64,000 nt of DNA from the NCBI GenBank assembly GCA_964507745.1, contig CAZDRM010000001.1:1999-65998 (forward strand), given 5' to 3'. Below the pieces are notes generated by a model that saw nothing but the letters and a program-made list of their open reading frames with translations, did no database searches and had not been told where the DNA came from. The stretch is from an uncultured Lachnospiraceae bacterium. Lineage in GTDB: Bacteria; Bacillota; Clostridia; Lachnospirales; Lachnospiraceae. Shown here piece after piece: positions 36,822 to 63,999 of the stretch. The first letter of the stretch is position 1. The number at the start of each line of letters is the position of its first letter. The position numbers and the translations under genes were made by a program.

Positions 36822-38771
36822 TTATAAACCATACTCTTTCATTATATTACGAAATTCCTGAGAATTGGAAAATCCCTGCAGCACCTGATCCCTTGTCATG
36901 GCGCCGGAATCCAGTTTATTTAACCAATCATAATATCCCTGTATATCGTATTCCCTGCCTAAGAATGTTCTGTAAAGTACCTTAATATACTCCGCATTGC
37001 TTAAGTTTTTATTCAAAAACTCCTGAGAGTGGAAAAAGCCTATAGTAGCTGCATCCGTTACAGTCCATTTTTTGTCAAGGATACGGTCGCACCAATCGTT
37101 TAGGCCGCTGATGTCATATCCTCTTCCCAAGGCTTTTGTATACATACGGGCTACAAAGCTTGTAAGACCGGGATTGCGGTCGCGTCCCTGAACCTTTTTG
37201 ACAGTTCCTCTTGTGATTCCGTAGAAGGCACATAAATCATTAAACTCTTTCGATTCCGCAAAGCCCTTAAAGATACCTTCCCTGGTAACCCCTGACTGCA
37301 TGCATCCCAGCCAATAAGCTTTGCCGCCGGAGTCCGCATTACGATCCAGCATAACCCTATACAACAAATCAACAAACTCACTGTCGCTTAAATTGCGGTT
37401 CCTCAATTCCGGGCTGAAGAAAAATCCATAAGCCACATCTGCGCCGCCTCTTCTTTTGCTGACCAGAGAATTCTTCCAGTCAATCAGTCCTTCATCATCA
37501 GGCTGCCGTCCAAAACAGAGTGTGTATAATCTGGTTACAAAAGATGTGACCAGATCGTCATTGGTTGCCTGATCGTCGGTTCCTCCCAGATATCCCGCCG
37601 CGTCAAAGAATTCAACATTATATGAAATAATTACATCTTTCCCTTTCTTATCTTTGATTCCGCTGATAGCTACACTATAAACGCCGGAAAGATTTCCTGT
37701 TCCGCAGGTTGCTGTACCGGGCTTAAAAATAATGGCGTTGCTCTCCCCTGCCGCCTCAAAATTAACATTGAAATAAGGCTTTGTTATATCAAAGCGGTCT
37801 GTCGTGTTATCTGCCGCCGTAAACTTCTGAACTTTTCCGTTGGGTAAAGTAAGTGAAACCTTTACATTGTTTATATTCATTTTGCTGACATCAAACTTGT
37901 CCGGATTCAAAGTAACCGACCAGGGCGTATCTCCCTGACAGAATTCCTGAGGGAAGTTTCCTGATGCAGGCCATGAAATGAAATCATAGTCCGGCGGCAA
38001 TACTCCCTTGTCCTCAACATACATAACGGCATAAGCCATATTGCTCTTATTTGTAGCATATCCGAAACCGGTGGATCCCATCCTGGGATCTAAAATCCAT
38101 CTTCTATGCCCCACATTTCCCAGATTACCGGGCGCTTTATCTTCCATAAAGTTCTGGGTAAACCACGCAAGACTTCTCCATGACTCATAAGATCCGCTGG
38201 CAATATTGCTCTTCTGGGTGGCTGTTCTTCCCGCCACATAAAAATTATTATCCATGCCGGAGGGCTGAGAAGGATAATTGTCCAATGTATTATTTGCCGC
38301 TAATATTACCGCTCCCTGCTGAGCCTGAGAGGTATATACAGGATTATATCCTACGGAAGGCAGTCCGGCTATCATACGCATCATATTAACGCTTTCTACT
38401 GCTTTCTGTAAATGGATTGTTGACAACACCCCCGCCGAATAGGGCTTGGTTACAACCGGAGTGGTCTGGTAGAATGTATAATTCAGCCCATAGCTGTACA
38501 GATTCCTGTACTGACTGGCAATGGTAAATTTACTGGGCTTGGCCAGGGATAAGTCTCCACTGTAGGAATATACTTTCTCCTCTTCCATAACCACATCGTT
38601 TTCCGAAAGGCTGTTTTCAGAAACACCTGTAGGCGTTACTATCACATTTTCCCCGTTGGCCGCAATCATTTCTTTCGCGTTTTCCGGTTCGGATGCGGCC
38701 AGAACCGGTGTGGTAATGGATGTTCCCAGCAATATTGCTGCAAGCATACAGGAAACAAGTCTTTTTCTCAT
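36822..38771 (-). CDS. Secreted CAP-domain protein with C-terminal DUF4214-type repeats
   Basis: Signal peptide, VNMMRMIAGL, GHRRWIL; tail FVTRLY..CFGRQPD..G..W / S.EF. Confidence 0.85.
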   Translation of the reverse strand: MRKRLVSCMLAAILLGTSITTPVLAASEPENAKEMIAANGENVIVTPTGVSENSLSENDVVMEEEKVYSYSGDLSLAKPSKFTIASQYRNLYSYGLNYTFYQTTPVVTKPYSAGVLSTIHLQKAVESVNMMRMIAGLPSVGYNPVYTSQAQQGAVILAANNTLDNYPSQPSGMDNNFYVAGRTATQKSNIASGSYESWRSLAWFTQNFMEDKAPGNLGNVGHRRWILDPRMGSTGFGYATNKSNMAYAVMYVEDKGVLPPDYDFISWPASGNFPQEFCQGDTPWSVTLNPDKFDVSKMNINNVKVSLTLPNGKVQKFTAADNTTDRFDITKPYFNVNFEAAGESNAIIFKPGTATCGTGNLSGVYSVAISGIKDKKGKDVIISYNVEFFDAAGYLGGTDDQATNDDLVTSFVTRLYTLCFGRQPDDEGLIDWKNSLVSKRRGGADVAYGFFFSPELRNRNLSDSEFVDLLYRVMLDRNADSGGKAYWLGCMQSGVTREGIFKGFAESKEFNDLCAFYGITRGTVKKVQGRDRNPGLTSFVARMYTKALGRGYDISGLNDWCDRILDKKWTVTDAATIGFFHSQEFLNKNLSNAEYIKVLYRTFLGREYDIQGYYDWLNKLDSGAMTRDQVLQGFSNSQEFRNIMKEYGL

Positions 38772-38804
38772 GTCAACATTCCTCCATTCATTTTGATGAT
38801 TTGT

Positions 38805-40379
38805 TTATAATCCGTATTCTTTCATAATCATTGCAAATTCCTTCGAACAGGAAAATCCTTTTAAAACCTCTTCTCTGGACATTTCCCCTGAATCCAGTTT
38901 ATTCAACCAGTACTTCATTCCCTCATCATCATACTCCCGATCTAAAAATGTCCGGTAAAGCACCTTGATATACTCTTCATTATTAAGGTTTTTATTTAAA
39001 AACTCCTGAGATTCAAAAAATCCTTTGGTAGATACATCCGTAACGCTCCATGTATGATCCAGGATCCGGCCGCACCAGTCGTTTAATCCGTTTACATCAT
39101 AATCCCGTCCCAGCGCTTTTGTATACAGTCTGGAAACAAACATGGTAAGCCCTGTATTTCGATCCCTGTTTTCATTAACGGATACCTGTCCGCGCTCAAT
39201 TCCGTAAACGCCGCAAACCTGCATAAATTCCGCCGATTCGGCAAAGCCTCTATATACGCCTTCTCTGGATACTCCCGCTTCCAGCCGTCTTACCCAGTAT
39301 TCTTTGCCGCTTTCATCATACTCCCGGTCCATCATAACACGGTACAATAGCTCTACAAATTCTTCATTACTCAAATTGCGGTTTTTCATTTCCTCGCTGA
39401 AGAAAAATCCCCGGGCTACTACAGCTCCCGACTTTTCCCGCCTTATAAGGGCTTCCTTCCAGTCCTGCATTCCCTCTCCGTCGGGCTGTCTCAAAAGGCA
39501 GAGATTATACAGTCTGTCCACAAATGCCTCTATCTGGGCAACATCATCATAAACCCTCATATACTCATCCAGATATATTCCTGCGCGTTGCTGCAGAACA
39601 GCTCCCGGATGCACATTGTCGATATAGTAGTCCCAGAAATTGCTGCCGTCTATTCCGAAAGCCGTATTAAAATCGATAATGGTAACATGATTTCTTTCAC
39701 ATACTTTTTTGATGGCGTCCAGATATTGTTCAAAGGTGTTTCCGTTTTCATTTTTAATAGGATCGAACTGGGACCTGTAATAAAACGGGAGAATACAGTA
39801 ACACTCTACGCCTTGGCTCCGAAGCCTCCTGATAGCCATATTCATGGCCCCGCATACCTCAGAGGTATTGGTGGAGTCCACTCTTCCTATGGGATAAGCC
39901 CTGGGAAAATCATTGGCCCCGAACTGGAAAAACGCCACATCATAATCGGAAATATCTATCTGATTCAATTCATAATTGATATTATGTCCCCAACGGCTTG
40001 AATAAGTAGCTCCTCCGATGGCCACATTGGTCACGTCGGCGCTGCGTCTCTGCTGGAAATAATACACATAGGAGTAAATCTCATTTCCGTTTCTATCCTT
40101 ATAGCCGGCGGCAGTACTATCCCCTAAGAATAAATATCTGGTATGCGCTGCGCTTTCTTCTGACAAAAACTGTTCGTGAGTGTTGTATAGAGATGCATCA
40201 AGGCACTCTATCTCATCCGTCCCTTCTGTCTTTTCCTCTTCCGTACCTGTTTCCTGTTCCGTTTTCTCTCCCTGCGGCGCCAAACCGTTTTCTGAAACAA
40301 GCGCCGCATATACGTTGGTAACTGTCATGGCGCTTGTCAACAAAAATGCCGCCAAAAGTAAAATTCCTTTTTTCTTCAT
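38805..40379 (-). CDS. Secreted SGNH/GDSL hydrolase with DUF4214-type repeats
   Basis: Signal peptide, FLGDS, GGAT, GAND, DNVHP; about 240-aa repeat tail. Confidence 0.88.
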   Translation of the reverse strand: MKKKGILLLAAFLLTSAMTVTNVYAALVSENGLAPQGEKTEQETGTEEEKTEGTDEIECLDASLYNTHEQFLSEESAAHTRYLFLGDSTAAGYKDRNGNEIYSYVYYFQQRRSADVTNVAIGGATYSSRWGHNINYELNQIDISDYDVAFFQFGANDFPRAYPIGRVDSTNTSEVCGAMNMAIRRLRSQGVECYCILPFYYRSQFDPIKNENGNTFEQYLDAIKKVCERNHVTIIDFNTAFGIDGSNFWDYYIDNVHPGAVLQQRAGIYLDEYMRVYDDVAQIEAFVDRLYNLCLLRQPDGEGMQDWKEALIRREKSGAVVARGFFFSEEMKNRNLSNEEFVELLYRVMMDREYDESGKEYWVRRLEAGVSREGVYRGFAESAEFMQVCGVYGIERGQVSVNENRDRNTGLTMFVSRLYTKALGRDYDVNGLNDWCGRILDHTWSVTDVSTKGFFESQEFLNKNLNNEEYIKVLYRTFLDREYDDEGMKYWLNKLDSGEMSREEVLKGFSCSKEFAMIMKEYGL

Positions 40380-40396: not shown

Positions 40397-42415
40397 CTAT
40401 AATCCGTATTGTCTCATAATATTAGCGAATTCTCTTGAATAGGAGAATCCTCTTAATACTTCGTCCCTTGTCTTCTGTCCGGAGTTTAACTGGCCTACCC
40501 AGTCATCCAGTCCGGCTTTGTCATATTCCCTGCCAAGAAATGTCCGGTAGAGCACCTTGACATATTCTTCATTGCTGAGATTTTTATTCAGAAACTCCTG
40601 AGAATGGAAAAATCCCGTTGTGGCTGCATCCGTAACGCTCCAGGAACCGCCCACGATCCGGTTGCACCAGTCATTAAGACCGCTTATATCATAGGGCCGG
40701 CCCAGAGCCTTTGTGTAAAGCCTTGATACAAACATGGTAACCCCCATATTGAGGTCACGCCCCTGATGTACCGTCACGTATCCCCGTTCAATGCCGTAAG
40801 AAGCACAGATATTGCTAAACTCTGCCGATTCCGCAAAGCCCTTGTATACCCCTTCCCTGGATACTCCTGCCGAAAGCCTTTCCAGCCAGTACGCCTTTCC
40901 CGACGCATCAGAGGATCGATTCATCATAACCTGATACAATAATTCCACAAAAGCCTCATCGCTTAAATTACGATTTTTCATTTCATCACTGAAGAAAAAT
41001 CCCGAAGCTACCGTTGCGCCTGACTTGCTCTTGTCCGCCAGAGCCTTTCTCCAGTAAATGAAACCGTCGTCATCCGGTTTCCTGCCAAAGCAGAGGGTGT
41101 AAAGCCGTTCAACAAATCCGTTGATTCCCTTATCGTCAACCGCTTCATTGTCACTGCCGCCCACATATAAAATTGCGCTGAAAAAATCCGTGTTGTAGGA
41201 AATCTTTGCCGGCGCTCCGTCCTTTGTGTATAAACCACTGATGGTAACCGTATAAATACCCCATAAATCGTCACTGCCCAACACGGCTGTTCCCGGTCTG
41301 AATATAATGGCGTTTGCAATGCCGTATCCGCTTTTGTCAATGTTAAAGTATGCCTGATTCTTGTTTGCCACATTACCGGCGGCGTCTGCAGCGGTAATGG
41401 TCTGGCTCCTTCCGTCAGGCGCGGTTATCGTAACCTGTACATTGCCTGTGTTCATTCTTGCAATATCAAATTTGTCGGGATTAAGGGTTACATGCCACGG
41501 CATCTCCGTATTTGCAAATTCCGAAGGGAAATTACCCGATGACGGCCAGGAAATAAAGTCATAGTCCGGCGTCGTACCGTTTCTGTTCATGGCGTACATT
41601 GCCGAATATGCTGCATTTCTGCTGCTTAAGGCAAATCCGAAGCCCGTATATCTCATGGGCGGATTTAAAATCCAGCGCCTGTGCCCTACAACGGCCACAT
41701 TACTTGCGCCTGAATCCTCCATATAACCCACAGTAAAAAGAGGCATATTATAATAAGAATCAGTGCCTGACATCCAGCCGTAGGCAATATTGCTATGGGA
41801 TGTGGAGGCATAACCGTTTCCGTAAAACTCATCATCCATCCCCGCCGGTCTTGACGGCGTATGGGTAAGAGTATCATTGGCCGCCAGAACCACTGCCCCG
41901 TACTGGCTCAGTTTATTGTAATCATCATGAAGATATACCACGGGCAGGCCTGCTATCATCCTCATAAGATTTACGCTGTCCAAGGCCCTTTTCCTGTGTT
42001 CTGCGGATACCTGCCCCAGAGAATAGGGCGGCTTGGTGTTGGGTCTTATATCCAAGAGCGGATACTCTTCTCCTCCGTAAACGAGAAACAACACCCTTGA
42101 TATAAGCGATTTGGACGGTTTCTCCGCCTCCAGCGCGCCGCTGTAGGAATAAACACTTTCTTCCTGCAGAGAAAGCCGGTTTCCCGACACATCATTTGCC
42201 GACAGATCCGTTTCCTGTAAAGTCCCGTCCTGTTCCGAGGTTTCATTATCTTCCCCATAGGACTCATCTGCAACAGCTTCGCCGGTGTCAATTCCTTCCA
42301 GATCAAAGCCTTCTGTCAGCCGGCTGCTTTCTTCGGCATTTACCGAGACCGGCGTCAAAATAGTGCAAACACTTATAAACAGCGCTAAAACGCCTGCTAT
42401 AAATCTCTTCTTCAT
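40397..42415 (-). CDS. Secreted CAP-domain protein with DUF4214-type repeats, paralog of 36822..38771
   Basis: Signal peptide, VNLMRMIAGLP, GHRRWIL, PDYDFISWP; repeat tail. Confidence 0.85.
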   Translation of the reverse strand: MKKRFIAGVLALFISVCTILTPVSVNAEESSRLTEGFDLEGIDTGEAVADESYGEDNETSEQDGTLQETDLSANDVSGNRLSLQEESVYSYSGALEAEKPSKSLISRVLFLVYGGEEYPLLDIRPNTKPPYSLGQVSAEHRKRALDSVNLMRMIAGLPVVYLHDDYNKLSQYGAVVLAANDTLTHTPSRPAGMDDEFYGNGYASTSHSNIAYGWMSGTDSYYNMPLFTVGYMEDSGASNVAVVGHRRWILNPPMRYTGFGFALSSRNAAYSAMYAMNRNGTTPDYDFISWPSSGNFPSEFANTEMPWHVTLNPDKFDIARMNTGNVQVTITAPDGRSQTITAADAAGNVANKNQAYFNIDKSGYGIANAIIFRPGTAVLGSDDLWGIYTVTISGLYTKDGAPAKISYNTDFFSAILYVGGSDNEAVDDKGINGFVERLYTLCFGRKPDDDGFIYWRKALADKSKSGATVASGFFFSDEMKNRNLSDEAFVELLYQVMMNRSSDASGKAYWLERLSAGVSREGVYKGFAESAEFSNICASYGIERGYVTVHQGRDLNMGVTMFVSRLYTKALGRPYDISGLNDWCNRIVGGSWSVTDAATTGFFHSQEFLNKNLSNEEYVKVLYRTFLGREYDKAGLDDWVGQLNSGQKTRDEVLRGFSYSREFANIMRQYGL

Positions 42416-42467
42416 TCCTGCGTCCCCTCTCAAAAAGCAATTACCTCAACTATTATACTCCTTTTTA

Positions 42468-44627
42468 TCATTTCAGTCCATATTTTGCCATTAAATCGGC
42501 AAATTCACGAGAGTCTGCAAAGCCTGCTATGATTTTGTCCCTGCTTTCTCCTTTGCTCAGTCTGGCAAGCCAGTAATTGAGGCCTTCTTCATCATATTCC
42601 CTGTTTAAAAAGGTTCTGTATAAAATTTTAACAAATTCTTCATTGGTGGTATTTTTATTTGAAAATTCTCTGGAATGGAAAAAGCCTTCTGTAGCCACCC
42701 TGTAAGGAGTCCAGTTTTGATTTATTACCCTGTCGCACCAGTCGTTTAACCCCTCCGTATCAAAGGACCTACCCAACGCCTTTTCATACATTCTGGCTAC
42801 AAATGCCGTAAGCTGCTGGTTTCTGTCCCTCATCTGACCTGTAGGAACAATTCCCGGCCCAAAGCCGCAGTTTCGGCAGATTTCCGTAAATTCCGGCGAT
42901 GCGCTGAAGCCATTCATGACATACTCTCTGGACATGCCGTTTTTCAATTTTAAAACCCAGTCCGCTTTTCCTGCCTCATCAGGCTTACGTGCCAGAAAAA
43001 CCCGGTACAAAAGCTCCACATAATCTTCATCGCTTAAATTTCTAAGCTTCAATTCCTCACTGAAGAAAAAACCGTAGGCAACCTCTCCGCCGTTCTCCCT
43101 GCCGGATTCCAGTCTTCCGCTCCAATCGGAAAGTCCGGCAGTCTCAGCTTCTCTCCCCAGACAGTAGTGGTACAGCCTCTTTACAAAGCTCTCTGCGGAA
43201 TCGGGAAGTACATCCATCTCTTCCGGTTCCGGCGTTTCCAGTTTAGGCGGTCTCGGCAGTTCCCCTGATTCATACCGCATTTCCACAGCTCTTTCCACCG
43301 CCTTATCTGCCGCCACGATTCCCCAGCCTGAATAAGCATCAAAGCCCGGAGAATATGTGTCTGTAGCTGTTTCCGCCAATATGGTTTTAACCTCTTCCAC
43401 CGATAAGGAGGGATTTGCCGCCCATACGGCCGCCGCGACTCCCGAAACAACTCCCGAGCTCATGGAAGAACCTCCCATGTATCCGTATCTGTCATTAGGA
43501 AGCGTGCTTAAAATCCGGTCTCCCGGAGCGGAAATAAAATTATCCGTACCGTAGCTGGCATCGCTTCTTTTTATCCCGCTTTCCACTGTGGCGATAACGC
43601 CTATGGCTGAACTGTATGCGGAAGGATAGTGCTTCTTATCCGATCCGTCATTTCCTGCCGAGCATACAATCAGGATTCCCTGGTTATAAGCCTTCTCCAT
43701 GGCCTCCTTTAAAAGCCTGTCCTCCTGATTCATTCCCATGCTCATGTTGATAATATTCACATCATGATCCGCCGCATATTGGATGGCATTTACCACATAA
43801 GAGGACAGCATATTTTTCCCGTCATGACTCTGAATGGCAATAATTTCCGCATAATTGTTGGAAATCCCCGAAACGCCCTGTTCGTTTCCCGTAACAGCGC
43901 CGATAATTCCCGCTATATGAGTTCCATGCCCGCTGGCGGAATAATCGCTGCTCATTCCGGGATAATCGGTGGTAACGGAGTTAACGCATAAAGCCCCATT
44001 CACATTGGCATTTAAGTCTTCGTGGTACAGATCGATTCCGCTGTCTATAACCGCTATCCGCACCCTACTGCAGGGCACGCTTTCCATCAGGCTCCATGCC
44101 CGTTCCATATTTAAATAATCCAGATACCACTGTTCATTATATCTGGGATCATTTACGGCTTCTTCCTGCATTTCGGGCTCTTCCGGCTCGTAAATATAAT
44201 TGGGCTGGGCATAAGCCACGCCGGGAACATCCGAATAGAAGTCCACTGCTTCCTCCACGCTCATGTCATCCTCAATGTCCATAACCGCAAACTGTATTCC
44301 CTCATCATCGCCCGTTACTTCTTCCTCTATTCCTTCCAGACCGAGTGTGGCAATTCCAACATCCTCTAAAACAAGAATGATCTCTCCGGAAGCATAATCC
44401 ACACCTTCTGTTCCCTCAAGGCCCTCTGTTTCTCTAATCCCTTCTGAATTCGTGGTCTTTTCTGCTTCACGAGACGCTTCTTCCAATATCTCGTTTGCAG
44501 AAACAGTTCCTCTTACGTCTGCAGAAGCAATTTCTGCCGCATTTGCAATTACTATTCCCTTATCGCACAAAAGGGTGGCAATTATAATTGCCACCGCTAT
44601 TTGTTTGAAATACTTTAATTTTTTCAT
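42468..44627 (-). CDS. Secreted S8 subtilisin-like protease with DUF4214-type repeats
   Basis: Triad motifs IAVIDSG, GHGTHIAG, GGSSMSS; SAGN oxyanion; repeat tail. Confidence 0.9.
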   Translation of the reverse strand: MKKLKYFKQIAVAIIIATLLCDKGIVIANAAEIASADVRGTVSANEILEEASREAEKTTNSEGIRETEGLEGTEGVDYASGEIILVLEDVGIATLGLEGIEEEVTGDDEGIQFAVMDIEDDMSVEEAVDFYSDVPGVAYAQPNYIYEPEEPEMQEEAVNDPRYNEQWYLDYLNMERAWSLMESVPCSRVRIAVIDSGIDLYHEDLNANVNGALCVNSVTTDYPGMSSDYSASGHGTHIAGIIGAVTGNEQGVSGISNNYAEIIAIQSHDGKNMLSSYVVNAIQYAADHDVNIINMSMGMNQEDRLLKEAMEKAYNQGILIVCSAGNDGSDKKHYPSAYSSAIGVIATVESGIKRSDASYGTDNFISAPGDRILSTLPNDRYGYMGGSSMSSGVVSGVAAAVWAANPSLSVEEVKTILAETATDTYSPGFDAYSGWGIVAADKAVERAVEMRYESGELPRPPKLETPEPEEMDVLPDSAESFVKRLYHYCLGREAETAGLSDWSGRLESGRENGGEVAYGFFFSEELKLRNLSDEDYVELLYRVFLARKPDEAGKADWVLKLKNGMSREYVMNGFSASPEFTEICRNCGFGPGIVPTGQMRDRNQQLTAFVARMYEKALGRSFDTEGLNDWCDRVINQNWTPYRVATEGFFHSREFSNKNTTNEEFVKILYRTFLNREYDEEGLNYWLARLSKGESRDKIIAGFADSREFADLMAKYGLK

Positions 44628-46822: not shown

Positions 46823-46864
46823 AATTTCCTCCTTTATCCGTAGCTGTTTTTGTGCCACACAGTA

Positions 46865-48270: not shown

Positions 48271-48285
48271 GCTCCCAGCTCCCAT

Positions 48286-49497: not shown

Positions 49498-49509
49498 CCT
49501 CCTACCTCC

Positions 49510-50580: not shown

Positions 50581-50609
50581 GGCTTCTCCTAACCTGTTAT
50601 TTTCATTCA

Positions 50610-50694
50610 ACTGTTTCTTTCCTTTAGCTGGTTCTTTCCTTCAGTTGGTTCTTTCCTTCAACTGGTTCTTTCCTTCAACTGGTTCTTTCCTTCA
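50610..50694. repeat. 17-bp tandem repeat, five copies (consensus actggttctttccttca)
   Basis: Units begin at 50610, 50627, 50644, 50661 and 50678; the last two are identical. Confidence 0.92.
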
Positions 50695-52310: not shown

Positions 52311-52325
52311 TCTTGCCTCCATGGG

Positions 52326-53507: not shown

Positions 53508-53518
53508 AGCATCTCCGT

Positions 53519-55207: not shown

Positions 55208-55287
55208 ATCTGCCTCCATAAATCAACAAATCGCTGTAAACAACAGAATATGTGACTCTCGCCGCATTTGTCCAATGAGTGTCCAGG

Positions 55288-56028: not shown

Positions 56029-56852
56029 TTTTCTACCTTCAATTCCTTATCATAACAAAGATTTCCAAAGGCCTTGTTGACCAGTCTGCCATACTTTCCT
56101 TTTGTTTTTCCGATGCATCTGATGGCAGGATTTAATACCCTTGTCAGGCGCACTTTCTTTCCTTTTCCCGCCGCAATGTCCTGTACCATTTTTGCCGTAT
56201 GCCCATATCTTGCATCCTGGGGAAAATAAACGCCGCTTTCGGGATTTTGTATTATCTTTTCCACTGTTTTGGCAAGATTTTCCACAGACAGAACGCTTCT
56301 TTCATTTTCTATGGCTGGAAACACCGGCATTATCTTTGCAAATTTTTCCAGAGTGCGATAATTCCCTTTACAGCCCTCCCCGTAAATCATGGGCGGGCGC
56401 AAAATCGCTATTTGAAAATCCTTATCGGCAAGGGGTCTTAAGCCTTCTTCCGCCTTTACCTTACTGTCCCCGTAAAAATTGGCGGGCGTAAGGGGCGTGT
56501 CAGCCTTTATAACCCGTTTTTCCCCTATGCCTCCGCTTTCGCCGTATACGATAATGCTGCTCATAAAAACAAATAAACCGACGCCCTGCTCCTTTGCCTT
56601 TTTTGCCGTTTCCACAGCCAGATGACAGTTTACGTCGTAATATCTTTTCTTTTCTTCTTCCGATACCTTTTCCACATCCGCATGGGCGATTCCCGCCACA
56701 TGAAATACGGCATCATATGGCGAAAAGTCATATTCTCTCCAGGCATTTCCCCTCATATCAATGGTGTCCACCTGATAGGACCTCTCCACAAGATACCGCT
56801 CCACATTCGTTCCTATATAACTGTCTTTACCGGTAATCAGTACTTTTTTCAC
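56016..56852 (-). CDS. NAD-dependent epimerase/4-reductase (CapN/WbpV-like)
   Basis: TGKDSYIG, HVAGIAH, SSIIVYG, YGDSK, RPPMIYG..CKGNY. Confidence 0.85.
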   Translation of the reverse strand: MKKVLITGKDSYIGTNVERYLVERSYQVDTIDMRGNAWREYDFSPYDAVFHVAGIAHADVEKVSEEEKKRYYDVNCHLAVETAKKAKEQGVGLFVFMSSIIVYGESGGIGEKRVIKADTPLTPANFYGDSKVKAEEGLRPLADKDFQIAILRPPMIYGEGCKGNYRTLEKFAKIMPVFPAIENERSVLSVENLAKTVEKIIQNPESGVYFPQDARYGHTAKMVQDIAAGKGKKVRLTRVLNPAIRCIGKTKGKYGRLVNKAFGNLCYDKELKVEKWNP

Positions 56853-57448
56853 TCTTTCATCGCTCCCGTACCGCCTTCTACAACGCCTTCGCTTTTCAGC
56901 ACGCTTAAAAAGGTTCCAAAAAAGCAGCGCAAGTCCATGAAAAATCCCATTTTCTCTTTATATTCCCCATCCAGCCTGGCCTTTACGGGGATTTCCAGCT
57001 CATCCCTGCCGTTAATCTGCGCCCAGCCCGTCAGTCCCGGTCTGATGTCATTTGCCCCGTACTTATCCCGCTCCTCAATTAAATCGTATTGATTATAAAG
57101 AGCCGGTCTGGGACCTACCACCGCCATATCTCCCTTTAAAATATTGATCAGCTGGGGCAGTTCATCCAGGCTTGTCTTACGCAAAAATTTTCCGGTCTTT
57201 GTAATATACTGCTCCGGATTTTTCAGAAGGTGTGTAGGCATGTCCTTGGGCGTATCCGTCCGCATGGTTCTGAATTTTAAAATCATAAAATGCTTTTTGT
57301 GAATGCCCACCCGCTTCTGTTGAAAGAATACCGGACCTTTTGATTCCGCTTTAACAGCAACGGACAATATCAAAAAAACAGGGGAAAGCACAAGCAGTCC
57401 TATAAGTGAAAGCAAAAAATCCACAATGCGTTTCCATTTCTGATACAT
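56849..57448 (-). CDS. Initiating phosphoglycosyl transferase (monotopic PglC/CapM-type)
   Basis: KR..D, FFQQKRVG, KFRTM, LRKTSLDELPQL, VGPRP, PGLTGWAQINGR. Confidence 0.93.
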   Translation of the reverse strand: MYQKWKRIVDFLLSLIGLLVLSPVFLILSVAVKAESKGPVFFQQKRVGIHKKHFMILKFRTMRTDTPKDMPTHLLKNPEQYITKTGKFLRKTSLDELPQLINILKGDMAVVGPRPALYNQYDLIEERDKYGANDIRPGLTGWAQINGRDELEIPVKARLDGEYKEKMGFFMDLRCFFGTFLSVLKSEGVVEGGTGAMKE

Positions 57449-57534: not shown

Positions 57535-59433
57535 TCAATTCTCCTTCTCTTCGACGTTATCAATGGTATAGGTAGGCACAATTCGGCTGACAACCTCTTT
57601 GATTTCGGGAGAGTCTTTTAAGGATGCCTCTTCAAGAGCCTTAAGCCCTTTGGCAAACTCTTCCTCATCCAGCTCAATAGGCTTGCCGATGTGAATCATC
57701 TTGTTGGCCGTAGCCGTCAGCCCCTCTTCATCCATCAAAAGCTCCTCATACATCTTCTCGCCGGGACGAAGCCCCGTAAATTCAATTTTAATATCCTCGT
57801 CCACCTTGTAGCCCGAAAGCTTAATGAGGTTTTTGGCAAGGTCTAAAATCTTAACCGGTTCTCCCATATCCAGCACGAAGATTTCCCCGCCCTTTGCATA
57901 GGCTCCTGCCTGCAGTACAAGGGAAACCGCCTCCGGGATCGTCATAAAATAACGGATGATATCCGGATGGGTAACCGTAACCGGTCCTCCTGCTTCAATC
58001 TGCTTTTTGAACAAGGGAATCACACTGCCGTTACTGCCCAGAACATTGCCGAAGCGCACCGCTACAAAGTCCGTTTTTGAATGCTTGTCCATGGTCTGGA
58101 TGATCATTTCACAGATTCGCTTGGAGGCTCCCATAATATTAGTTGGATTTACCGCCTTATCCGTAGAAATCATAACAAATTTTTTAACGCCGTATTTATC
58201 AGCCGCCACAGCGGTTTTTAAGGTTCCGAAAACATTATTTTTAATAGCCTCATTTGGGCTTTCCTCCATTAAGGGTACATGCTTATGTGCCGCTGCATGG
58301 TAGATAATGTCCGGCCTGTGTTCCTTCATAATACTGTTCATGCGGTGGGTATTGCGCACCGAAGCAATCAGTACCGTTAAATCCAGCTGGGGATGCTCTC
58401 GGTTTAATTCCTGCTGTACCTCATAGGTAGTATTCTCATAAATATCCACAATTATCAATTTCTTTGGATTATGTGATGCCACCTGCCTGCATATTTCACT
58501 GCCTATAGAGCCGCCGCCCCCTGTAACCAGAACCGTTTTATTTTCCACATAACCAAGAATTTCATCAATATTGACTTCTACGGGTTCCCTGCCCAAAAGA
58601 TCCTCAATATCCACTTCACGCAGCTTGGATACATTAACGTCCCCGTTAATCAACTGGTATACCCCCGGCAGAATACGCATTTTGCAGCCGGTATCACGGC
58701 AGATTTCCAGAATTCCCTTCATCTGGGATCTCTTTGCCGAAGGGAGGGCAATAATAATCTCGCTGACATTATACTTTTCCACATTATCCAGTATGGTATT
58801 CCTGTCTCCTACAATAGGCACGCCTCTTAAATACTTGCCGTGGCAGATAGGATTGTCGTCTATGACGCAGACCGGATTCATCCTTAAGTAGCTGCTGGTC
58901 TGGATTTCCTTAATAATGGTATTTCCCGATGCCCCGGCTCCTACGATCATGCAGTTGATATCCGAAGCCTTCTGCATGCCATGAATCCGCCTGTGCTGCA
59001 GCACGCGCAGAATGCGATAGGAAAAACGGGTACCGGCAGAAAAAGCCAGCATAAAAAATCCATAGAAAAATGGATAGCTGAAGGGCATCCTGACTCCCAT
59101 AACCAGGAAAATGACCGGCTGAATCAGGGCGCAGATAAATACAGCTACCAGTATATTAAACAGCTCCGAATCGCTGGCATATCTCCAGACGCTCTTATAA
59201 AGCCGGAACAGCCAGTATATCAGAATGGTAATGATCACATTAATGGGAAAGGCCTCCATGACCGTATTAATAAACAGCCTGGGAATATCCATAAATTTAA
59301 AATCGTATCTGATATATAATGACAATATCCCCGCCGCAAACATGCCGCAGATATCCATAAGAGTCAGTATAATTATTCTATTGAGCGGTATATCCAGAAT
59401 TTTATCCTTAATAAACTTTTTCATAGCTTTCAT
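57535..59433 (-). CDS. capD: CapD/PglF-type UDP-GlcNAc 4,6-dehydratase
   Basis: Four N-terminal TMs, DLLGR, GGGGSIGSE, HAAAHKHVP, STDKAV, RFGNVLGS, RPGEK. Confidence 0.92.
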   Translation of the reverse strand: MKAMKKFIKDKILDIPLNRIIILTLMDICGMFAAGILSLYIRYDFKFMDIPRLFINTVMEAFPINVIITILIYWLFRLYKSVWRYASDSELFNILVAVFICALIQPVIFLVMGVRMPFSYPFFYGFFMLAFSAGTRFSYRILRVLQHRRIHGMQKASDINCMIVGAGASGNTIIKEIQTSSYLRMNPVCVIDDNPICHGKYLRGVPIVGDRNTILDNVEKYNVSEIIIALPSAKRSQMKGILEICRDTGCKMRILPGVYQLINGDVNVSKLREVDIEDLLGREPVEVNIDEILGYVENKTVLVTGGGGSIGSEICRQVASHNPKKLIIVDIYENTTYEVQQELNREHPQLDLTVLIASVRNTHRMNSIMKEHRPDIIYHAAAHKHVPLMEESPNEAIKNNVFGTLKTAVAADKYGVKKFVMISTDKAVNPTNIMGASKRICEMIIQTMDKHSKTDFVAVRFGNVLGSNGSVIPLFKKQIEAGGPVTVTHPDIIRYFMTIPEAVSLVLQAGAYAKGGEIFVLDMGEPVKILDLAKNLIKLSGYKVDEDIKIEFTGLRPGEKMYEELLMDEEGLTATANKMIHIGKPIELDEEEFAKGLKALEEASLKDSPEIKEVVSRIVPTYTIDNVEEKEN

Positions 59434-59645: not shown

Positions 59646-61895
59646 TCATTTCAGCCCGAAGGAAGCCTTTAATTGTGCAAACTCTTTGGAGTTGGCAAAG
59701 CCCAGCATAACTTCATTTCTGCTTGTTCCACTTGCCAGTCTGTTCATCCAGTCATCATATCCTGCCTGGTCATATTCCCTGTCAAAGAATGTGCGGTAAA
59801 GAACCTTCACATATTCATCATCGCTTAAATTCTTTGCCAGAAATTCCGGGGAGTTAAAAAATCCCCTTGTGGAAACATCATTGATGGTCCATTGCCCGCT
59901 GGTAATGCGGTTGCACCAGTCATTTAACCCTGCAACCTCATACTCTCTGCCCAGAGCCTTTGTATAAAGTCTTGCCACAAAGGTGGTAAGTCCGGGGTTT
60001 TTATTCCTTCCTTCTAATCCGTTAACATTAATACTTCCTCTTATAATGCCGTAATCATTACATATGTTACCAAATTCTACGGATTCCGCAAAACCTCTGT
60101 ATACGCCTTCTCTTCCTACGCCGTTTTCGAGCTTATATACCCAGTCAGCCTTTCCGCCGGCATCGGAAGCGCGTCCCATCATGACATTATATAATAATTC
60201 CACATATTCTTCATTGGTAGTATTCCACAGCTTAAATTCATCACTTAAGAAAAATCCGCGGGCCGCTTCCGCTCCGGAAATCTGACCGTTGCATAACCTG
60301 TTAGTCCAGTCTGCAAGACCTGCTTCTTCGGGCTTTCTTTTCAGGCACATTTCATAAAGTCTGGTAACAAAGGCTTCTACCTGCTTTCTGTCAGAAACCC
60401 TTCCGTAGCCGGGAACTATCTGCGAATAAGAGCTTACTCCTATAATGGGCAGTGTCCGGGCCTCCACCCATGACGGGTCGGAATCCAGCTTTGCAAATAC
60501 ATCTTCCGCAAGAACGCCTGCAATGGAAAAATTTAATTTTCCTCCTTCATTTTGCTTATTGATAATAAAGCAGTCCACCATGGGGTCATATTTTGCCGCA
60601 TAGTAGGAATATGCCAGACTTGCGGCCTGGATATCGGTTCCCATATACTGTGAAAATCCCTGTTCTGTCAATAAAATCCTGTGCTGGCTGCCAAAAGTAT
60701 TTTTTACATAGTCTGTCAGGATATTTAAATTGTTGCCATCCACGAACATGGCATCCGCTCTCTTAGGATTTAAGTCAAGCTCCGGTGCATCCGGCATATG
60801 GGCAAGCTCTACCCAGATATCCGGCTGTGATAAGATAGCGGGATATAAATGGTAGGAAATACTCCAGTCCACATTCGCCTGTCGCGCCGCAATGGCGGCA
60901 TTAAAACGATTTAAATAATCTTTTGTGGCAATTCCCCTACCCTCATCATTATGCTGCCAGCTATGTTCCAGAGAAACGCTGACTCTCGATACAGATGTTT
61001 TGGAACGGATAGCGTTATAGAGAATCATATAAGCATCCGCATATAAATCAGCATTATACTGAGGGTCTGATGAACCGCTAAAGTGCCATGAATTGGGCAT
61101 ATTCACTTCATTGCCCAAAATAAAGTTATCCACATGACAGTCTGACTTACACCAGTTTTCCGCCATCCATGCAAACAGTGCCTCATAATAATGCCTGCCG
61201 TCTCCTCTTACATTAGGCGCGTAATACGGCGCATTTTTTGTATTATTTCCCCTGTTAGCCAAAGCTGTAGGGTCCACCAGAATTTCTTTTCCGTTTTTGC
61301 AGGGAACAAGAATAACAACACTGATTGTCGCGCCCTTGGCATTAGCATTTCTGATCAGCGCGGATTTATCGTCCCTAAAATAATAAGTACGGCCGTTATA
61401 ATCAAATCTTTTATCCAGAGGACTTGACCCGTCTCCCATAAAATCTGTAACCATCATATTAACCAGGGTATGCTGTCCGCCGTAACTTCCCAGATAACTT
61501 GCTCCGCTGAAATCTCCCTGAATACCCTTTTTGGTGGTAGTCTTGAAGAAAGCATCCTCTGTTACATAGCTGCCGGCCTCCTCAGAATACACATATTCCT
61601 CATCATCAGCCAGCCACTCTGTGGGAATTCCGTTATAAGTCTCCAAAGGGTCTTCCCCTTCTTTACCCAGCTTGATTCCTTCTTTTACACCCTCTTCTTT
61701 ACCTGTTTCCTCTTTGTCAGCGTCCACAGCATTCTTTTCACTGTTTTCGGAAACAGAGGTTTCATTTTCCGGTATTAAGCCATTTGTTCCCATCTGCTCT
61801 TTTGCAAATGCGGTAACTCCCGTTCCCGCCATAAGCGTCATCGCGAGAAACAGGGCAAATACTCTTTTTGATAGTTTTTTCGTCATAATTCTCAT
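59646..61895 (-). CDS. Secreted DUF5722-like (clan GH-A TIM barrel) protein with DUF4214-type repeats
   Basis: Signal peptide, ILGNEVN (acid/base-like), SYHLYP, LLTEQG (nucleophile-like); repeat tail. Confidence 0.75.
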   Translation of the reverse strand: MRIMTKKLSKRVFALFLAMTLMAGTGVTAFAKEQMGTNGLIPENETSVSENSEKNAVDADKEETGKEEGVKEGIKLGKEGEDPLETYNGIPTEWLADDEEYVYSEEAGSYVTEDAFFKTTTKKGIQGDFSGASYLGSYGGQHTLVNMMVTDFMGDGSSPLDKRFDYNGRTYYFRDDKSALIRNANAKGATISVVILVPCKNGKEILVDPTALANRGNNTKNAPYYAPNVRGDGRHYYEALFAWMAENWCKSDCHVDNFILGNEVNMPNSWHFSGSSDPQYNADLYADAYMILYNAIRSKTSVSRVSVSLEHSWQHNDEGRGIATKDYLNRFNAAIAARQANVDWSISYHLYPAILSQPDIWVELAHMPDAPELDLNPKRADAMFVDGNNLNILTDYVKNTFGSQHRILLTEQGFSQYMGTDIQAASLAYSYYAAKYDPMVDCFIINKQNEGGKLNFSIAGVLAEDVFAKLDSDPSWVEARTLPIIGVSSYSQIVPGYGRVSDRKQVEAFVTRLYEMCLKRKPEEAGLADWTNRLCNGQISGAEAARGFFLSDEFKLWNTTNEEYVELLYNVMMGRASDAGGKADWVYKLENGVGREGVYRGFAESVEFGNICNDYGIIRGSINVNGLEGRNKNPGLTTFVARLYTKALGREYEVAGLNDWCNRITSGQWTINDVSTRGFFNSPEFLAKNLSDDEYVKVLYRTFFDREYDQAGYDDWMNRLASGTSRNEVMLGFANSKEFAQLKASFGLK

Positions 61896-62053: not shown

Positions 62054-62091
62054 TGTCAACATGCTCTTCACTGTTACTTTTATCAATCCGA

Positions 62092-63999
62092 TTATAATCC
62101 GTAAGTTCTCATCAGCTGCGCAAACTCCTTAGATTCCGCAAAGCCTCTCAGCACTTCTCTGCGACTGACGCCGGAATTTAACTTCTGCAGCCAGTAAACA
62201 TAACCCTCCTGGTCATATTCCCTGTCAAAGAAAGTCCGGTAAAGCACTTTTACGTATTCACTATTGGTATGGCGCATATTCAAATATTCAGGGGACTCAA
62301 AAAATCCCGTAGTAGCCATATCCATAACAGTCCATTTCTTATCGCAGATTCTGTTGCACCAGTCATTTAAACCGTCAATATCATACGCTCTTCCCAGGGC
62401 TTTTGTATACATTCTGGATACAAAAGTAGTCAGTCCCGGATTTCTGTCACGGCCCTCATTGACAGTTACGGTTCCTCTTTTTATTCCATAAGAATTACAA
62501 ATCATATCAAACTCGGCAGAATCCGCAAAGCCTTTGAATACGCCCATACGTCCTGCGCCGTTTTCTAATTTATACAGCCAGTCCGTTTTTCCGGCCCAGT
62601 CGGAGCCTCTACCCATCATAACATTATATAAACGCTCAACATACTCGTCATTGGTATGATTCATAAGCTGGAACTCATCACTGAAGAAGAATCCTCTTGC
62701 TGCTTCCGCCCCTGTTGTCCTGCCGCTGCACATTCTGTCTGTCCAGTCCTTCAGACCTTCCGGCTCCGGTTCCCTGCCCAGACACAGTCTGTAGAGCCTG
62801 GTCACATATGCCTCCACCTGCGCCCTGTCAACCGCAGGTCCCTTGGTCAGACCCAGATAATTGGCAATACCTGTAGCGTCCGCAACGCCCAGACGCTGCA
62901 AATTGCTTTCACTGGAAAGGAAAGCCGCATCGGATCCGTTTGTCAGGAACGCATGCTCCACAATAACGGCTGTAATACCCGCTTCTTTGGAACGTCTGAT
63001 TACGCCGTAATAATCCGCCAACGAACCGTCCGGATATTTTGTACCGTCTCCGGAATTGCGCGTCTTGATTCCGTTCTGGTTCAATCCAAGCGCTCCTAAC
63101 TGCCTGGAAATGTGCCTTGAAAGGTTTGCTCCGTCAACTCCGATAGCCGGATTGTAATTGGCATTGGGATAATAAACTTCCGAACCCTTTGCCGACGACG
63201 AACCTGCTGAATTTAAATGGATACTTACAAAATAGTCGGCTCCCACACGGGCTGATGCTGCAACTCTGTTGGCATTACAGTCAACCGAACCGGTTCCCGG
63301 ATAAGGACATGCTGTCCCTGTACGTGTCAGATATACCTGTACTCCTGAATATTCTTCCAGCTCCGCTTTGCAATACTGGGCAATTTTTAAATTAAGAACT
63401 TCTTCGCTTAAGCCGTTAGCCCTTGCTCCCGCATGAGTAGCGTCATGGCCCGGATCAATCACTACAACAACATCTCCGCTGTCTTCTGCTCTCATCCTGC
63501 CCTTATCGCCGTTTGCAAGAGCGTCTCCGATTTCATTTGCCGCTATCCTGGAAACCTGACTGCCGTTTCCATCCAAAGACACAACCTGTAATTCCACATC
63601 GGACATATCAAAATCTACACTCTCCGGCATAAGCGCGCCTTCTTCGGCTTCAGGCACTTCACGGTCCACGCCGAAATAAACGTTCGCCATACCTGTGTCC
63701 GCTATTCTGACGGAAGACTCACAGCCGTCTTCTGTGGTAACATTCACGCTTTTTATTTCATAAATTCCCGCATCCTCTTCTGAAAAAGGAAGCTCAAATA
63801 AAATGGTGTTTTCCAATGTTTCTTCACTGGAATAAACAAACTGTTCTTTTGTATTGTAATTTTCTACCGTTAATGCGCCGCCTGCAAGACGGGTATTCTC
63901 ATCTCCGAACCCAACCAGCACCATCTGGCTGCCCGGAGAAGCAACATAACTGTTTTCTATATATAAGAAGTCTAACTTTCCTTCTTCTCCATAAACCTC
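62092..63999 (-). CDS. N-acetylmuramoyl-L-alanine amidase (Amidase_3) with DUF4214-type repeats; 5' end outside the window
   Basis: IDPGH, E..LNL, VYLTR, SIHLNS, IVEHAF; the frame stays open from 63924 to the window edge. Confidence 0.9.
   Translation of the reverse strand, partial: EVYGEEGKLDFLYIENSYVASPGSQMVLVGFGDENTRLAGGALTVENYNTKEQFVYSSEETLENTILFELPFSEEDAGIYEIKSVNVTTEDGCESSVRIADTGMANVYFGVDREVPEAEEGALMPESVDFDMSDVELQVVSLDGNGSQVSRIAANEIGDALANGDKGRMRAEDSGDVVVVIDPGHDATHAGARANGLSEEVLNLKIAQYCKAELEEYSGVQVYLTRTGTACPYPGTGSVDCNANRVAASARVGADYFVSIHLNSAGSSSAKGSEVYYPNANYNPAIGVDGANLSRHISRQLGALGLNQNGIKTRNSGDGTKYPDGSLADYYGVIRRSKEAGITAVIVEHAFLTNGSDAAFLSSESNLQRLGVADATGIANYLGLTKGPAVDRAQVEAYVTRLYRLCLGREPEPEGLKDWTDRMCSGRTTGAEAARGFFFSDEFQLMNHTNDEYVERLYNVMMGRGSDWAGKTDWLYKLENGAGRMGVFKGFADSAEFDMICNSYGIKRGTVTVNEGRDRNPGLTTFVSRMYTKALGRAYDIDGLNDWCNRICDKKWTVMDMATTGFFESPEYLNMRHTNSEYVKVLYRTFFDREYDQEGYVYWLQKLNSGVSRREVLRGFAESKEFAQLMRTYGL

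Follow-up and report, generated by a model that had tools for sequence, protein, structure and literature searches.

Seven tail genes within a glycan export locus

The window, by which we mean the whole 64,000-nucleotide stretch of DNA analysed, carries seven minus-strand genes (A–G) whose products differ in their N-terminal heads and end in a common 245-residue tail, and these lie among the genes of a glycan export pathway (Table 1). An earlier note on this DNA had described seven proteins with differing heads and a shared four-unit helical tail of DUF4214 type, and this was borne out: all seven ORFs are present and each has four PF13946 DUF4214 repeats at the extreme C-terminus, with Pfam E values of 1e-49 to 2e-60 and bit scores of 167–201 per protein (PF13946 membership is a score above the gathering threshold of 23.2 bits, usually as tandem repeats). 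Sec-type signal peptides are predicted on all seven proteins. Pfam also recovered the amidase, S8 protease, SGNH hydrolase and two CAP heads which the note had named, while the glucosaminidase-like head it gave to Gene C belongs to no Pfam family and is suggested, together with SH3_3, by atlas features. Genes C–G are packed up to wzm as described earlier, with spacers of -4, 34, 17 and 33 nt between them and a final 3 nt between Gene G and wzm.

Table 1. Tail genes and glycan genes in the window (coordinates are window positions).
Feature	Position	Strand	Content	Source
Gene A	62092..63999	-	Signal peptide, Amidase_3, 4x DUF4214 (tail 62095-62829); extends past window edge, full ORF G000:C1:64090-66165, 691 aa	Pfam, signal-peptide analysis
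Gene B	59646..61895	-	Signal peptide, DUF5722, 4x DUF4214 (tail 59649-60383)	Pfam
CapD/PglF-like	57535..59433	-	Membrane 4,6-dehydratase (Polysacc_synt_2)	
PGT	56849..57448	-	Small Bac_transf polyprenyl-phosphate glycosyl-phosphate transferase	
Epimerase, GT2	55288..56852	-	NAD-dependent epimerase (56016-56852), GT2 (55288-56028)	
Three GT4	51084..55219	-	Glycosyltransferases, 566, 399 and 412 aa	
cc149	50675..51124	-	Small coiled-coil protein without signal peptide; paralogs at 35589-36002 and 29096-29542	
Core GT4 triplet	47068..50610	-	Conserved; 366, 403 and 405 aa	
Gene C	44624..46858	-	Signal peptide, non-Pfam head, Gly/Pro linker, 4x DUF4214	
Gene D	42468..44627	-	Signal peptide, fervidolysin-type prodomain, Peptidase_S8, 4x DUF4214	Pfam
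Gene E	40397..42433	-	Signal peptide, CAP, 4x DUF4214 (tail 40400-41134)	Pfam
Gene F	38805..40379	-	Signal peptide, GDSL/SGNH hydrolase, 4x DUF4214	Pfam
Gene G	36822..38771	-	Signal peptide, CAP, 4x DUF4214	Pfam
Wzm	36042..36818	-	ABC-2 permease	
u137, GT4 protein	32303..36002	-	Coiled-coil paralog (35589-36002); 1098-aa protein with three GT4 modules (32303-35599)	
Acyltransferase_3	31122..32279	+	Membrane protein, likely O-acetylase of the glycan	
Wzt	29668..30942	-	ABC ATPase with C-terminal Wzt_C	
More glycan genes	19686..29542	-	u148 coiled-coil paralog, GT4, GT4+GT8, nucleotidyltransferase, 4,6-dehydratase, epimerase	
GT-C/PMT_2-like, GT2	within 19686..29542	-	730-aa 12-TM (GT39-like) protein, GtrB-like GT2	

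The glycan genes were confirmed (CapD-like, Bac_transf PGT, GT2, many GT4, Wzm and Wzt), and a locus that brings together a Wzm permease, a Wzt ATPase, a PGT and GTs of the cytoplasm matches an ABC-transporter-dependent glycan pathway. NCBIfam gave these genes no equivalog that would name the sugars. We take the core to resemble the Escherichia coli O8/O9a clusters, which have wzm, a wzt whose product ends in a binding domain, the wbdD terminator and the GT4 genes wbdA/B/C; here the same gene logic is seen in Wzm, Wzt with Wzt_C, a post-wzt coiled-coil protein or coiled-coil methyltransferase, and three GT4s, although a Gram-positive organism would be making a wall polymer and not LPS. For the chain terminator or capping enzyme that Wzt_C would be expected to recognise, the window offers no methyltransferase beside wzt, where the coiled-coil module stands alone, whereas the post-wzt gene includes a SAM methyltransferase in three other genomes (G346, G451 and G033), and in other genomes the methyltransferases encoded after Wzt have a homolog of cc149 as their N-terminal 150 aa. 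A TylF-like methyltransferase is encoded elsewhere in the window, at 8626-9483.

Genome-wide we found 16 DUF4214-tailed proteins (62 PF13946 matches), seven of them encoded within this one locus and all 16 with secretion signals, whose mutually unrelated heads include amidase, S8, SGNH, three CAP, RCC1 propellers, an M6-like peptidase and Bsp plus ricin. The tail is at the extreme C-terminus in 118 of 123 non-redundant tail proteins of relatives, where the passenger domains include Amidase_3, GH5, Peptidase_C1 plus lectin, BspA-type LRR and Big_2, with GH25 and YkuD heads each found in single relatives.

The tail sequence and its fold

The seven tails share 44–68% pairwise identity while the heads are unrelated, and the proposed repeat pattern FV.RLY..LGR..D..G...W...L..G......GF..S.EF is upheld by invariant Y/R/G/W/GF/S/E columns in the alignment. 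The seven proteins have no Pfam match to SLH, CWB2 or choline-binding domains, and instead of an LPxTG motif with a hydrophobic stretch and basic end they terminate with the fourth DUF4214 repeat (...YGL or YGLK), in agreement with the earlier note. SLH (PF00395) had no match genome-wide with control genomes positive, CWB2 (PF04122) had none in the genome, and Choline_bind_1 (PF01473) matched none of the seven proteins at an E cut-off of 0.01 (the genome-wide search for this family was silent even in control genomes).

The structure model of the Gene E tail (pLDDT 95.5) consists of two phycobilisome-linker-like helical domains, which together make up the four repeats. Both halves match the phycobilisome-linker fold (PF00427 clan; a helical domain of ~115 residues), each aligning with solved linker domains with Z 10.5–11.2 and rmsd 3.1–3.7 Å over 113–116 residues, and there is a weak Pfam cross-match of the tail to PF00427 itself (the linkers 3PRU, 3OHW, 3NPH and 2KY4 share 10–16% sequence identity with the tail). 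The earlier suggestion of a likeness to the N-terminus of the S-layer protein RsaA did not fare as well: against the O-antigen-binding domain of RsaA (residues 1–250, 6T72) the tail gave Z 3.8 (6t72_A) and 4.7 (6z7p_A) over 82–84 residues, which is below noise for helical proteins, and a profile search of PDB sequences found no RsaA match. The tails have pI values of 4.7–8.6 and are mostly acidic, and in this they are unlike anchors which bind anionic polymers by charge.

Association of the tail with the Wzm/Wzt–GT4 core

We used Wzm as the marker for the locus in other genomes, with an ortholog cut-off of at least 50% identity. Such a Wzm is found in 24/25 of the tail-rich genomes tested, compared to a base rate of 17/150 family genomes and 10/398 class genomes (3–11%). 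In the family sample it is present in all four genomes having at least three tail proteins (51–60% identity), in the class sample in 5/6 tail-rich genomes versus 5/392 others, and five additional tail-rich genomes, including Butyrivibrio proteoclasticus P18 and Erysipelotrichaceae and Solobacterium MAGs, have a Wzm of 57–63% identity. It should be noted that Fisher p-values for this association are too favourable, since related genomes are counted as independent.

The conserved Wzm–Wzt–GT4 core, in which orthologs of the core GT4 triplet (43–57% identity) accompany Wzm and Wzt, is often flanked by tail genes. These lie no more than 10 kb from Wzm in G090, G091 and G145, one is found ~6.5 kb past Wzm in G076, and in G536 a single 55-kb locus around Wzm contains all of the 14 DUF4214 matches scored, which come from eight or more tail genes. 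Amongst 75 tail loci from ~32 genomes, 12 lie no further than 10 kb from a Wzm ortholog and core GT4s are near ~8 more. The linkage to the wzm/wzt–GT4 locus, whose absence from relatives the earlier note had named as grounds for rejecting its proposal, is seen in both co-occurrence and gene order.

A congener of the source genome (G119) has no DUF4214, no core GT4 and no Wzm ortholog (29–31%). Its partly syntenic locus includes a different Wzm/Wzt and a GT2 polymerase and encodes another polymer pathway. The amidase ortholog of this congener (58% identity) has nine Bsp-like repeats where the DUF4214 tail sits in its counterpart, and a nearby C1 peptidase has six; these are the only Bsp-like proteins in that genome, and in Clostridium sp. 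CAG:632 the same C1 plus lectin plus Big_2 head is joined to a DUF4214 tail. In this congener, whose polymer locus differs, Bsp-like repeats take the place of the tail. These GBS Bsp-like repeats (PF08481) are unrelated to DUF4214, and the source genome has just two of them in one protein.

What the tail may bind

The observations on which we build are the shared module and fold, the signals on all 16 proteins, the diverse heads including wall hydrolases, the co-occurrence and synteny with the locus, and the exchange of the tail for Bsp-like repeats in G119. We suggest, with confidence that is evenly balanced, that the tail is a modular non-covalent surface-retention domain binding the linked Wzm/Wzt wall glycan. 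Each tail protein would be exported by Sec, and the tail would then keep its head, an enzyme or an adhesin, at the cell envelope by binding a secondary wall glycan, which the linked Wzm/Wzt pathway (PGT, core GT4 triplet and more GTs) would build and the ABC transporter export, with one of the three LCP ligases of the genome presumably attaching it to peptidoglycan. Surface retention, the glycan as ligand and the attachment of the glycan to the wall are all steps that we infer. The wall anchor proposed in the earlier note is supported in part, in its modular, surface-retention-like behaviour and its locus linkage, with the glycan the putative ligand.

It is less probable, and on balance we think unlikely, that the tail is a surface anchor with another receptor, such as peptidoglycan, lipoteichoic acid or a different wall polymer, with the clustering reflecting an envelope island and co-regulation with wall hydrolases. 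Most genomes having the orthologous locus are without DUF4214 (11/17 in the family and 5/10 in the class samples), including G494, which the Wzm tree places as sister to a tail-rich genome, and in G143, which is tail-less, the locus adjoins a gene for a GH25 lysozyme that has nine ChW repeats, which indicates that polymer and tail are not one-to-one. In the loci fetched from tail-rich genomes of family f55, no tail gene comes within 10 kb of Wzm, and the tail-rich G285 has a divergent locus (Wzm only 42% and the GT4_403 homolog only 33% identity). The ChW- and SH3-tailed wall hydrolases adjoining orthologous loci in tail-less genomes further suggest that wall enzymes gather there irrespective of anchor. 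However, nearly every tail-rich genome tested has this particular Wzm type against so low a base rate, and a ubiquitous ligand such as peptidoglycan would predict neither this association nor the joint absence of tails and core in the congener.

We consider it improbable that the tail is a protein–protein module, acting in surface-coat self-assembly or docking on a glycan-machinery or envelope protein, with glycan not the direct ligand. The sole solved relatives of the fold are phycobilisome linkers, and these bind proteins rather than sugars, fitting inside phycobiliprotein rings, though they do so within cyanobacteria while the tail belongs to proteins that an anaerobic Firmicute secretes. 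DUF4214 also occurs in signal-less proteins, as a fusion with a core GT4 (G091), at the N-terminus of a post-Wzt methyltransferase (G033), where the coiled-coil adaptor otherwise sits and the placement is adaptor-like, and in a 240-aa post-Wzt protein (G418), so the domain is not intrinsically extracellular. Set against this, no conserved extracytoplasmic protein partner is evident within the locus, the cc149 family having neither signal peptide nor TM segment. Equivalent enzymes in relatives bear the putative wall-binding ChW or a Bsp-like domain, which binds lipoteichoic acid in the Streptococcus suis autolysin Atl (PMC13248702), and the DUF4214 protein Psh of Pseudomonas putida reportedly acts through O-antigen.

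Least probable of all, and very doubtful, is that the locus does not anchor the tail proteins but has them as clients, which are either glycosylated with its glycan via the GT-C-like protein or released as enzymes or adhesins with the tail binding host or dietary glycans, since GT-C and GtrB pairs such as the one encoded here commonly decorate wall polymers, the peptidoglycan amidase, GH25, YkuD and glucosaminidase-like heads must act on the bacterium's own wall, and host-glycan binding predicts no covariation with bacterial Wzm type, although several heads are adhesin- or lectin-like (CAP, RCC1, LRR and ricin) and the DUF4214 proteins of segmented filamentous bacteria (SFB) are major host-facing antigens in the literature.

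The feature is real, and a tail retaining proteins by way of the linked glycan would be a variation on the theme of an anchor plus a wall glycan, with the ligand our proposal. SLH domains and pyruvylated secondary cell-wall polymers, found in Bacillus, Paenibacillus and others, pair a repeated anchor module with a cognate wall glycan by the same logic but with a different fold. The CWB2 proteins of Clostridium difficile, shown by experiment to bind PSII (PMC4973711; PSII locus PMC5065235), likewise combine one non-covalent module with many secreted proteins of varied heads, and their genes adjoin the polymer genes; their ligand is a secondary wall glycopolymer, and we propose the same kind for DUF4214, though CWB2 is unrelated to the tail in fold and sequence. 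Psh has the same domain family; the gene for this RTX and DUF4214 protein is part of the O-antigen operon, and the protein reportedly sits on the surface via an ABC-type surface glycan, with O-antigen binding based on genetics and modelling (bioRxiv 10.64898/2026.09.02.748959), but this is a single Gram-negative protein with T1SS export and RTX repeats which serves as a phage shield.

The anchor idea for DUF4214 is itself not new, as it has been published as a hypothesis for SFB, where this was termed a likely surface-anchoring domain (PMC3371716, PMC12780176). The SFB proteins (Cluster.1/Cluster.3; Pamp et al. 2012, PMC3371716; also PMC12780176) belong to the same Pfam family, and there too many secreted proteins whose heads are dissimilar end in four conserved regions, in Clostridia which lack the usual wall-binding motifs, and the SFB domain has been compared earlier to the phycobilisome linker 2KY4. 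SFB differ in family and hosts, and neither a ligand nor a linked glycan locus was proposed for them, whereas here the tail genes sit inside a defined Wzm/Wzt–GT4 locus and occur together with it.

A wider reading, which we offer tentatively and as less likely than not, is that DUF4214 may serve as a polymer-address domain inside and outside the membrane alike: copies that lack a signal peptide (in the core GT and WbdD-like post-wzt terminators) might hold the nascent chain in the cytoplasm, and secreted copies might tether dozens of enzymes and adhesins outside to the same polymer. If so, the polymer locus and the repertoire of tails would share their gains, losses and horizontal transfers, and Gram-positive gut bacteria would have in the tail a fourth major system of non-covalent anchoring, the SFB antigens included.

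Tail proteins and glycan genes of the window

The source assembly (391 contigs, 2.78 Mb, completeness 89.7%) has the Lachnospiraceae isolate A65_57.ET.DSS/MGBC000076 and UBA3273 as its nearest named relatives. In the window, seven ORFs have four PF13946 DUF4214 repeats at their C-terminal end (Pfam, E 1e-49 to 2e-60), which confirms the common tail that the earlier note had recognised by eye; the pattern is genuine and far exceeds what chance would produce. The heads are Amidase_3, DUF5722, one without a Pfam family, Peptidase_S8 with its prodomain, CAP, GDSL/SGNH and CAP, and each of the seven has an N-terminal signal peptide of Sec type (the amidase gene extends past the window end, its complete form being 691 aa). 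The head without a Pfam family had been called glucosaminidase-like, a label with which language-model features agree as a lead, as they place it near SH3_3 plus glucosaminidase proteins.

The polysaccharide region lies on the minus strand, with the glycan genes between and after the tail genes. Five of the tail genes are inserted between the GT4 triplet and wzm with intergenic gaps of -4 to 34 nt, the last of them being 3 nt from wzm. A promoter and terminator scan of 29000-48500 gave counts no higher than those from shuffled sequences, and operon structure can be inferred only from the short gaps. As to the sugars of the polymer, no NCBIfam equivalog was found for the GT4s, Wzm/Wzt or the PGT, and the sugar-modifying block listed in the table hints at an unusual activated sugar or capping group. 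The GtrB-like GT2 and its 12-TM neighbour probably form a module that glycosylates the polymer outside the cytoplasm, with proteins as a possible alternative target.

Features of the window and of loci in the source and comparison genomes, with their coordinates
Feature	Location	Strand	Description
Glycan genes between and after tail genes	Window	minus (acyltransferase plus)	CapD-like dehydratase, small Bac_transf PGT, epimerase, GT2; six single GT4s; Wzm, 1098-aa triple-GT4 protein, acyltransferase; Wzt with Wzt_C domain, then further GTs and sugar-nucleotide genes
Core GT4 triplet	Window 49510-50610, 48286-49497, 47068-48285		Orthologs in relatives at 43-57% identity
Small coiled-coil paralogs	Window 50675-51124, 35589-36002, 29096-29542	minus	Three signal-less proteins, 137-149 aa; amphipathic basic stretch plus coiled coil
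GT2 and 12-TM pair	Window 19686-22814	minus	GtrB-like GT2 with C-terminal TM segments; adjoining 730-aa 12-TM protein without Pfam/NCBIfam match, features resembling PMT_2/GT39 GT-C enzymes
CotH block	Window 9927-13973	minus	Downstream of glycan genes; CotH kinase-like protein with Fn3_assoc/CHB_HEX_C, VTC-domain protein, 224-aa ORF, BspA-type LRR protein
Sugar-modifying block	Window 1627-9483	minus	Epimerases/dehydratases, cyclase-like protein, HAD phosphatase, D-2-hydroxyacid dehydrogenase, cytidylyltransferase, 588-aa ORF without family, TylF-like O-methyltransferase
Tail protein of odd order	L003:3859-5148 (source genome G000, contig C91)		Tail not C-terminal: signal peptide, acidic linker, four DUF4214 repeats, Pro/Glu-rich linker, short Cys-/His-rich C-terminus
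GT4-DUF4214 fusion	L009:14573-16444 (G091)		Core GT4 ortholog (48% identity) with four divergent DUF4214 repeats, signal-less
DUF4214-methyltransferase	L012:7002-8570 (G033)		DUF4214 repeat before SAM methyltransferase, directly after wzt, signal-less
240-aa protein	L102:12086-12808 (G418)		Signal-less, directly after wzt
Bsp-like proteins	L114:13696-18345, L115:7536-11111 (G119)		The only two of this genome, flanking partly syntenic glycan genes
GH25 lysozyme	L014:1675-4170 (G143)		Nine ChW (PF07538) repeats; adjoins orthologous Wzm-Wzt-GT4 locus

A local HMM made from the tails identified 16 tail proteins in the source genome, seven in the window and nine on six other contigs (with heads including GBS_Bsp-like plus ricin, RCC1 propellers, CAP+Big_2 and an M6-like peptidase), and all 16 have signal peptides. 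In an alignment of fourteen tails identity was 44-68%, with Y, R, G, W, GF, S and E invariant in every one of the four repeats. The tails are rich in aromatic residues (13-15%), and most are acidic. About 32 related genomes gave 123 complete, non-redundant tail proteins; in 118 of these the tail is at the extreme C-terminus, and its passengers (65 of the 123 surveyed) include Big_2, CAP, DUF5722, GDSL, BspA-type LRR, Amidase_3, Peptidase_C1+lectin, S8, RCC1 and GH5. Among 1.84 billion representatives of 50%-identity clusters the tail profile matched 39,577 with E up to 1e-3 and 5,838 at the stricter E up to 1e-30. A search of 50,697 phage records and of IMG/VR for endolysins that bind the wall through the tail found none, the matches being one weak one (29% over 40% of the query) and two weak loci respectively, so that there is no support for wall binding from the phage side.

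Association of the tail with the Wzm locus

In a family sample of 150 genomes (one per genus), DUF4214 was present in seven and a Wzm ortholog, defined by 50% identity or more, in 17. The ortholog is present in each of the four genomes that encode at least three tail proteins (G076, G090, G091 and G145), with a tail gene within 10 kb of Wzm in the last three and about 6.5 kb beyond it in G076. The tail-rich members of a class sample of 398 genomes were G536, from another genus of the Lachnospiraceae, and five genomes of a second Clostridia family (f55, considered as segmented filamentous bacteria, SFB, and ruled out by its GC content of 39-52%). Wzm was found at 52-58% identity in five of these six, compared with 50% or more in only 5/392 of the others. 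Fisher tests of tail against Wzm gave p = 6e-6 (family) and p = 2e-8 (class), naive values that overstate the association because related genomes are not independent. A further five tail-rich genomes with no Wzm near the sampled tail loci still carry one elsewhere at 57-63% (Butyrivibrio proteoclasticus P18, a Solobacterium MAG, an Erysipelotrichaceae MAG, a Roseburia MAG and RUG12884), and nine further genomes have the ortholog no more than 10 kb from a tail gene. Of the 75 tail loci, 12 have a Wzm ortholog within that distance and about eight more have core GT4s. None of the loci fetched from the tail-rich f55 genomes had a tail gene within 10 kb of Wzm.

The recurrent core of the locus consists of Wzm, Wzt, the small coiled-coil gene and three GT4s. 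In G536 (100% complete) the locus opens with a GH25-tail gene followed by the PGT, GTs, Wzm, Wzt and the GT4 triplet, and closes with seven more tail genes 30-47 kb further on; all 14 scored DUF4214 matches of this genome fall within the one locus stretch. The genomic linkage in relatives on which the earlier note had staked its reading was thus found both as co-occurrence and as synteny.

Tail-bearing and tail-less genomes are interleaved in the Wzm tree, with at least three changes forced by well-supported branches and eight on the ML tree, and the association is therefore not a single inherited event. The nesting of the f55 Wzm sequences among those of the Lachnospiraceae, together with the Erysipelotrichaceae and Solobacterium Wzm at 57-63%, suggests horizontal movement of the locus between families, and the tail repertoire has perhaps moved in the same way.

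One of the two main rival readings is that the tail is an anchor with another ligand, which we think unlikely. Consistent with it, DUF4214 is missing from 11 of the 17 family genomes and five of the ten class genomes with a Wzm ortholog, and the tail-rich G285, whose Wzm is only 42% identical, departs in part from the co-occurrence; the excess of Wzm among the tail-rich genomes argues against it. As the locus occurs more widely than the tail, the polymer does not need the tail. No locus gene was seen to separate tail-bearing from tail-less genomes, as PGT type, Wzt length and the GT4 triplet occur in both.

Tail exchange and signal-less DUF4214 proteins

The congener G119 (completeness 99%) lacks DUF4214, the core GT4 and a Wzm ortholog (best Wzm 29-31% identical). 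It keeps CapD (61%) and the PGT in the same order as the window, with a different Wzm/Wzt, a double-GT2 protein and a methyltransferase between these and the amidase gene. In the amidase ortholog, whose head shares 58% identity with that of the window amidase, nine GBS Bsp-like repeats plus glucosaminidase stand in place of the DUF4214 tail, and a neighbouring Peptidase_C1+lectin+Big_2 protein has six Bsp-like repeats (in Clostridium sp. CAG:632 this head carries a DUF4214 tail instead). In the Streptococcus suis autolysin Atl, the Bsp-like domain binds lipoteichoic acid and keeps the enzyme on the cell (PMC13248702), and the G119 proteins and their own polymer locus may be a second anchor-plus-polymer pair. 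Beside loci orthologous to that of the window we also found the ChW-bearing lysozyme of the tail-less G143 and, in G346, a SpoIID protein with SH3_3 repeats. In these cases the tail holds the place of known or presumed wall-binding repeats on the same enzymes. Tail type switches together with the polymer locus in the single congener pair available; the ChW repeats beside an orthologous locus in G143 show that the pairing is not one-to-one.

DUF4214 also occurs in signal-less proteins inside such loci. The GT4-DUF4214 fusion forms one cluster of 53 member sequences and, being the sole fusion among the best 120 homologs, is on present sequences lineage-specific. In the 240-aa protein of G418 two DUF4214-like repeats can be seen by eye, one of which Pfam also scores (E 2.5e-11). 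The gene after wzt in G346 and G451 combines a coiled-coil module with a methyltransferase of the same type as in G033, a position which we take to be that of a WbdD-like terminator. The small coiled-coil proteins of the window match the N-terminal 150 aa of these methyltransferases and are each encoded immediately upstream of a GT4 gene; they may be chain-length or adaptor proteins without a catalytic domain. These signal-less forms support a physical tie between DUF4214 and the pathway and do not settle the bound partner, as nascent-chain recognition and a protein-adaptor role both fit. The latter would accord with the tail being a protein-protein module, the other main rival, which we regard as improbable.

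Fold, precedents and significance

An AlphaFold2 model of the tail from the fourteen-tail alignment (pLDDT 95.5) has two helical halves, each of which superposes on solved phycobilisome linker (PF00427) domains (Z 10.5-11.2, rmsd 3.1-3.7 Å, 113-116 residues). The first match outside the phycobilisome is RsaA, whose likeness the earlier note had raised; at Z 3.8-4.7 over 82-84 residues this is within the noise for helical proteins, and as a profile search of PDB sequences retrieved neither RsaA nor any solved DUF4214 structure, we have dropped it as support.

Pamp et al. [quoted passage not shown] DUF4214 has since been called a likely surface-anchoring domain of SFB (2025; PMC12780176), and in a 2026 preprint a CD8 T-cell epitope stems from a putatively secreted SFB protein with DUF4214. 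According to another 2026 preprint (bioRxiv 10.64898/2026.09.02.748959), P. putida Psh (RTX+DUF4214) is encoded in the O-antigen operon and acts by O-antigen binding. The anchor idea is therefore already in print; what is new here is the particular candidate for the ligand, together with the evidence that co-occurrence, synteny and tail swapping provide. None of the DUF4214 papers we found concerns Lachnospiraceae. It should be noted that for the analogous CWB2/PSII system of C. difficile the ligand is established by experiment (PMC4973711, PMC5065235), whereas we infer that of DUF4214, and that none of the known anchor-plus-wall-glycan systems uses the fold of this tail.

The proposal of a wall anchor for the glycan of the locus thus keeps the support of linkage, synteny and tail exchange and loses that of RsaA. 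On the most probable reading, whose chances we put at about even, the tail is a module that holds proteins on the surface non-covalently and has as its receptor the glycan made by the linked Wzm/Wzt-GT4 pathway. The anchor question is directly testable, as there is a cultured near-relative (isolate A65_57.ET.DSS, MGBC000076, with a tail 89% identical) as well as Butyrivibrio isolates.

DUF4214 is a large, uncharacterised family found on many secreted proteins in Lachnospiraceae, the second Clostridia family, Erysipelotrichaceae MAGs and SFB, and in the first three of these groups, which we surveyed, the tail proteins include peptidoglycan hydrolases, proteases and adhesin-like proteins. Anchoring to an exported glycan, if true, would account for the surface display of such proteins without SLH, CWB2 or sortase signals, and would provide both a concrete ligand candidate and a starting point for surface display or the targeting of these commensals.
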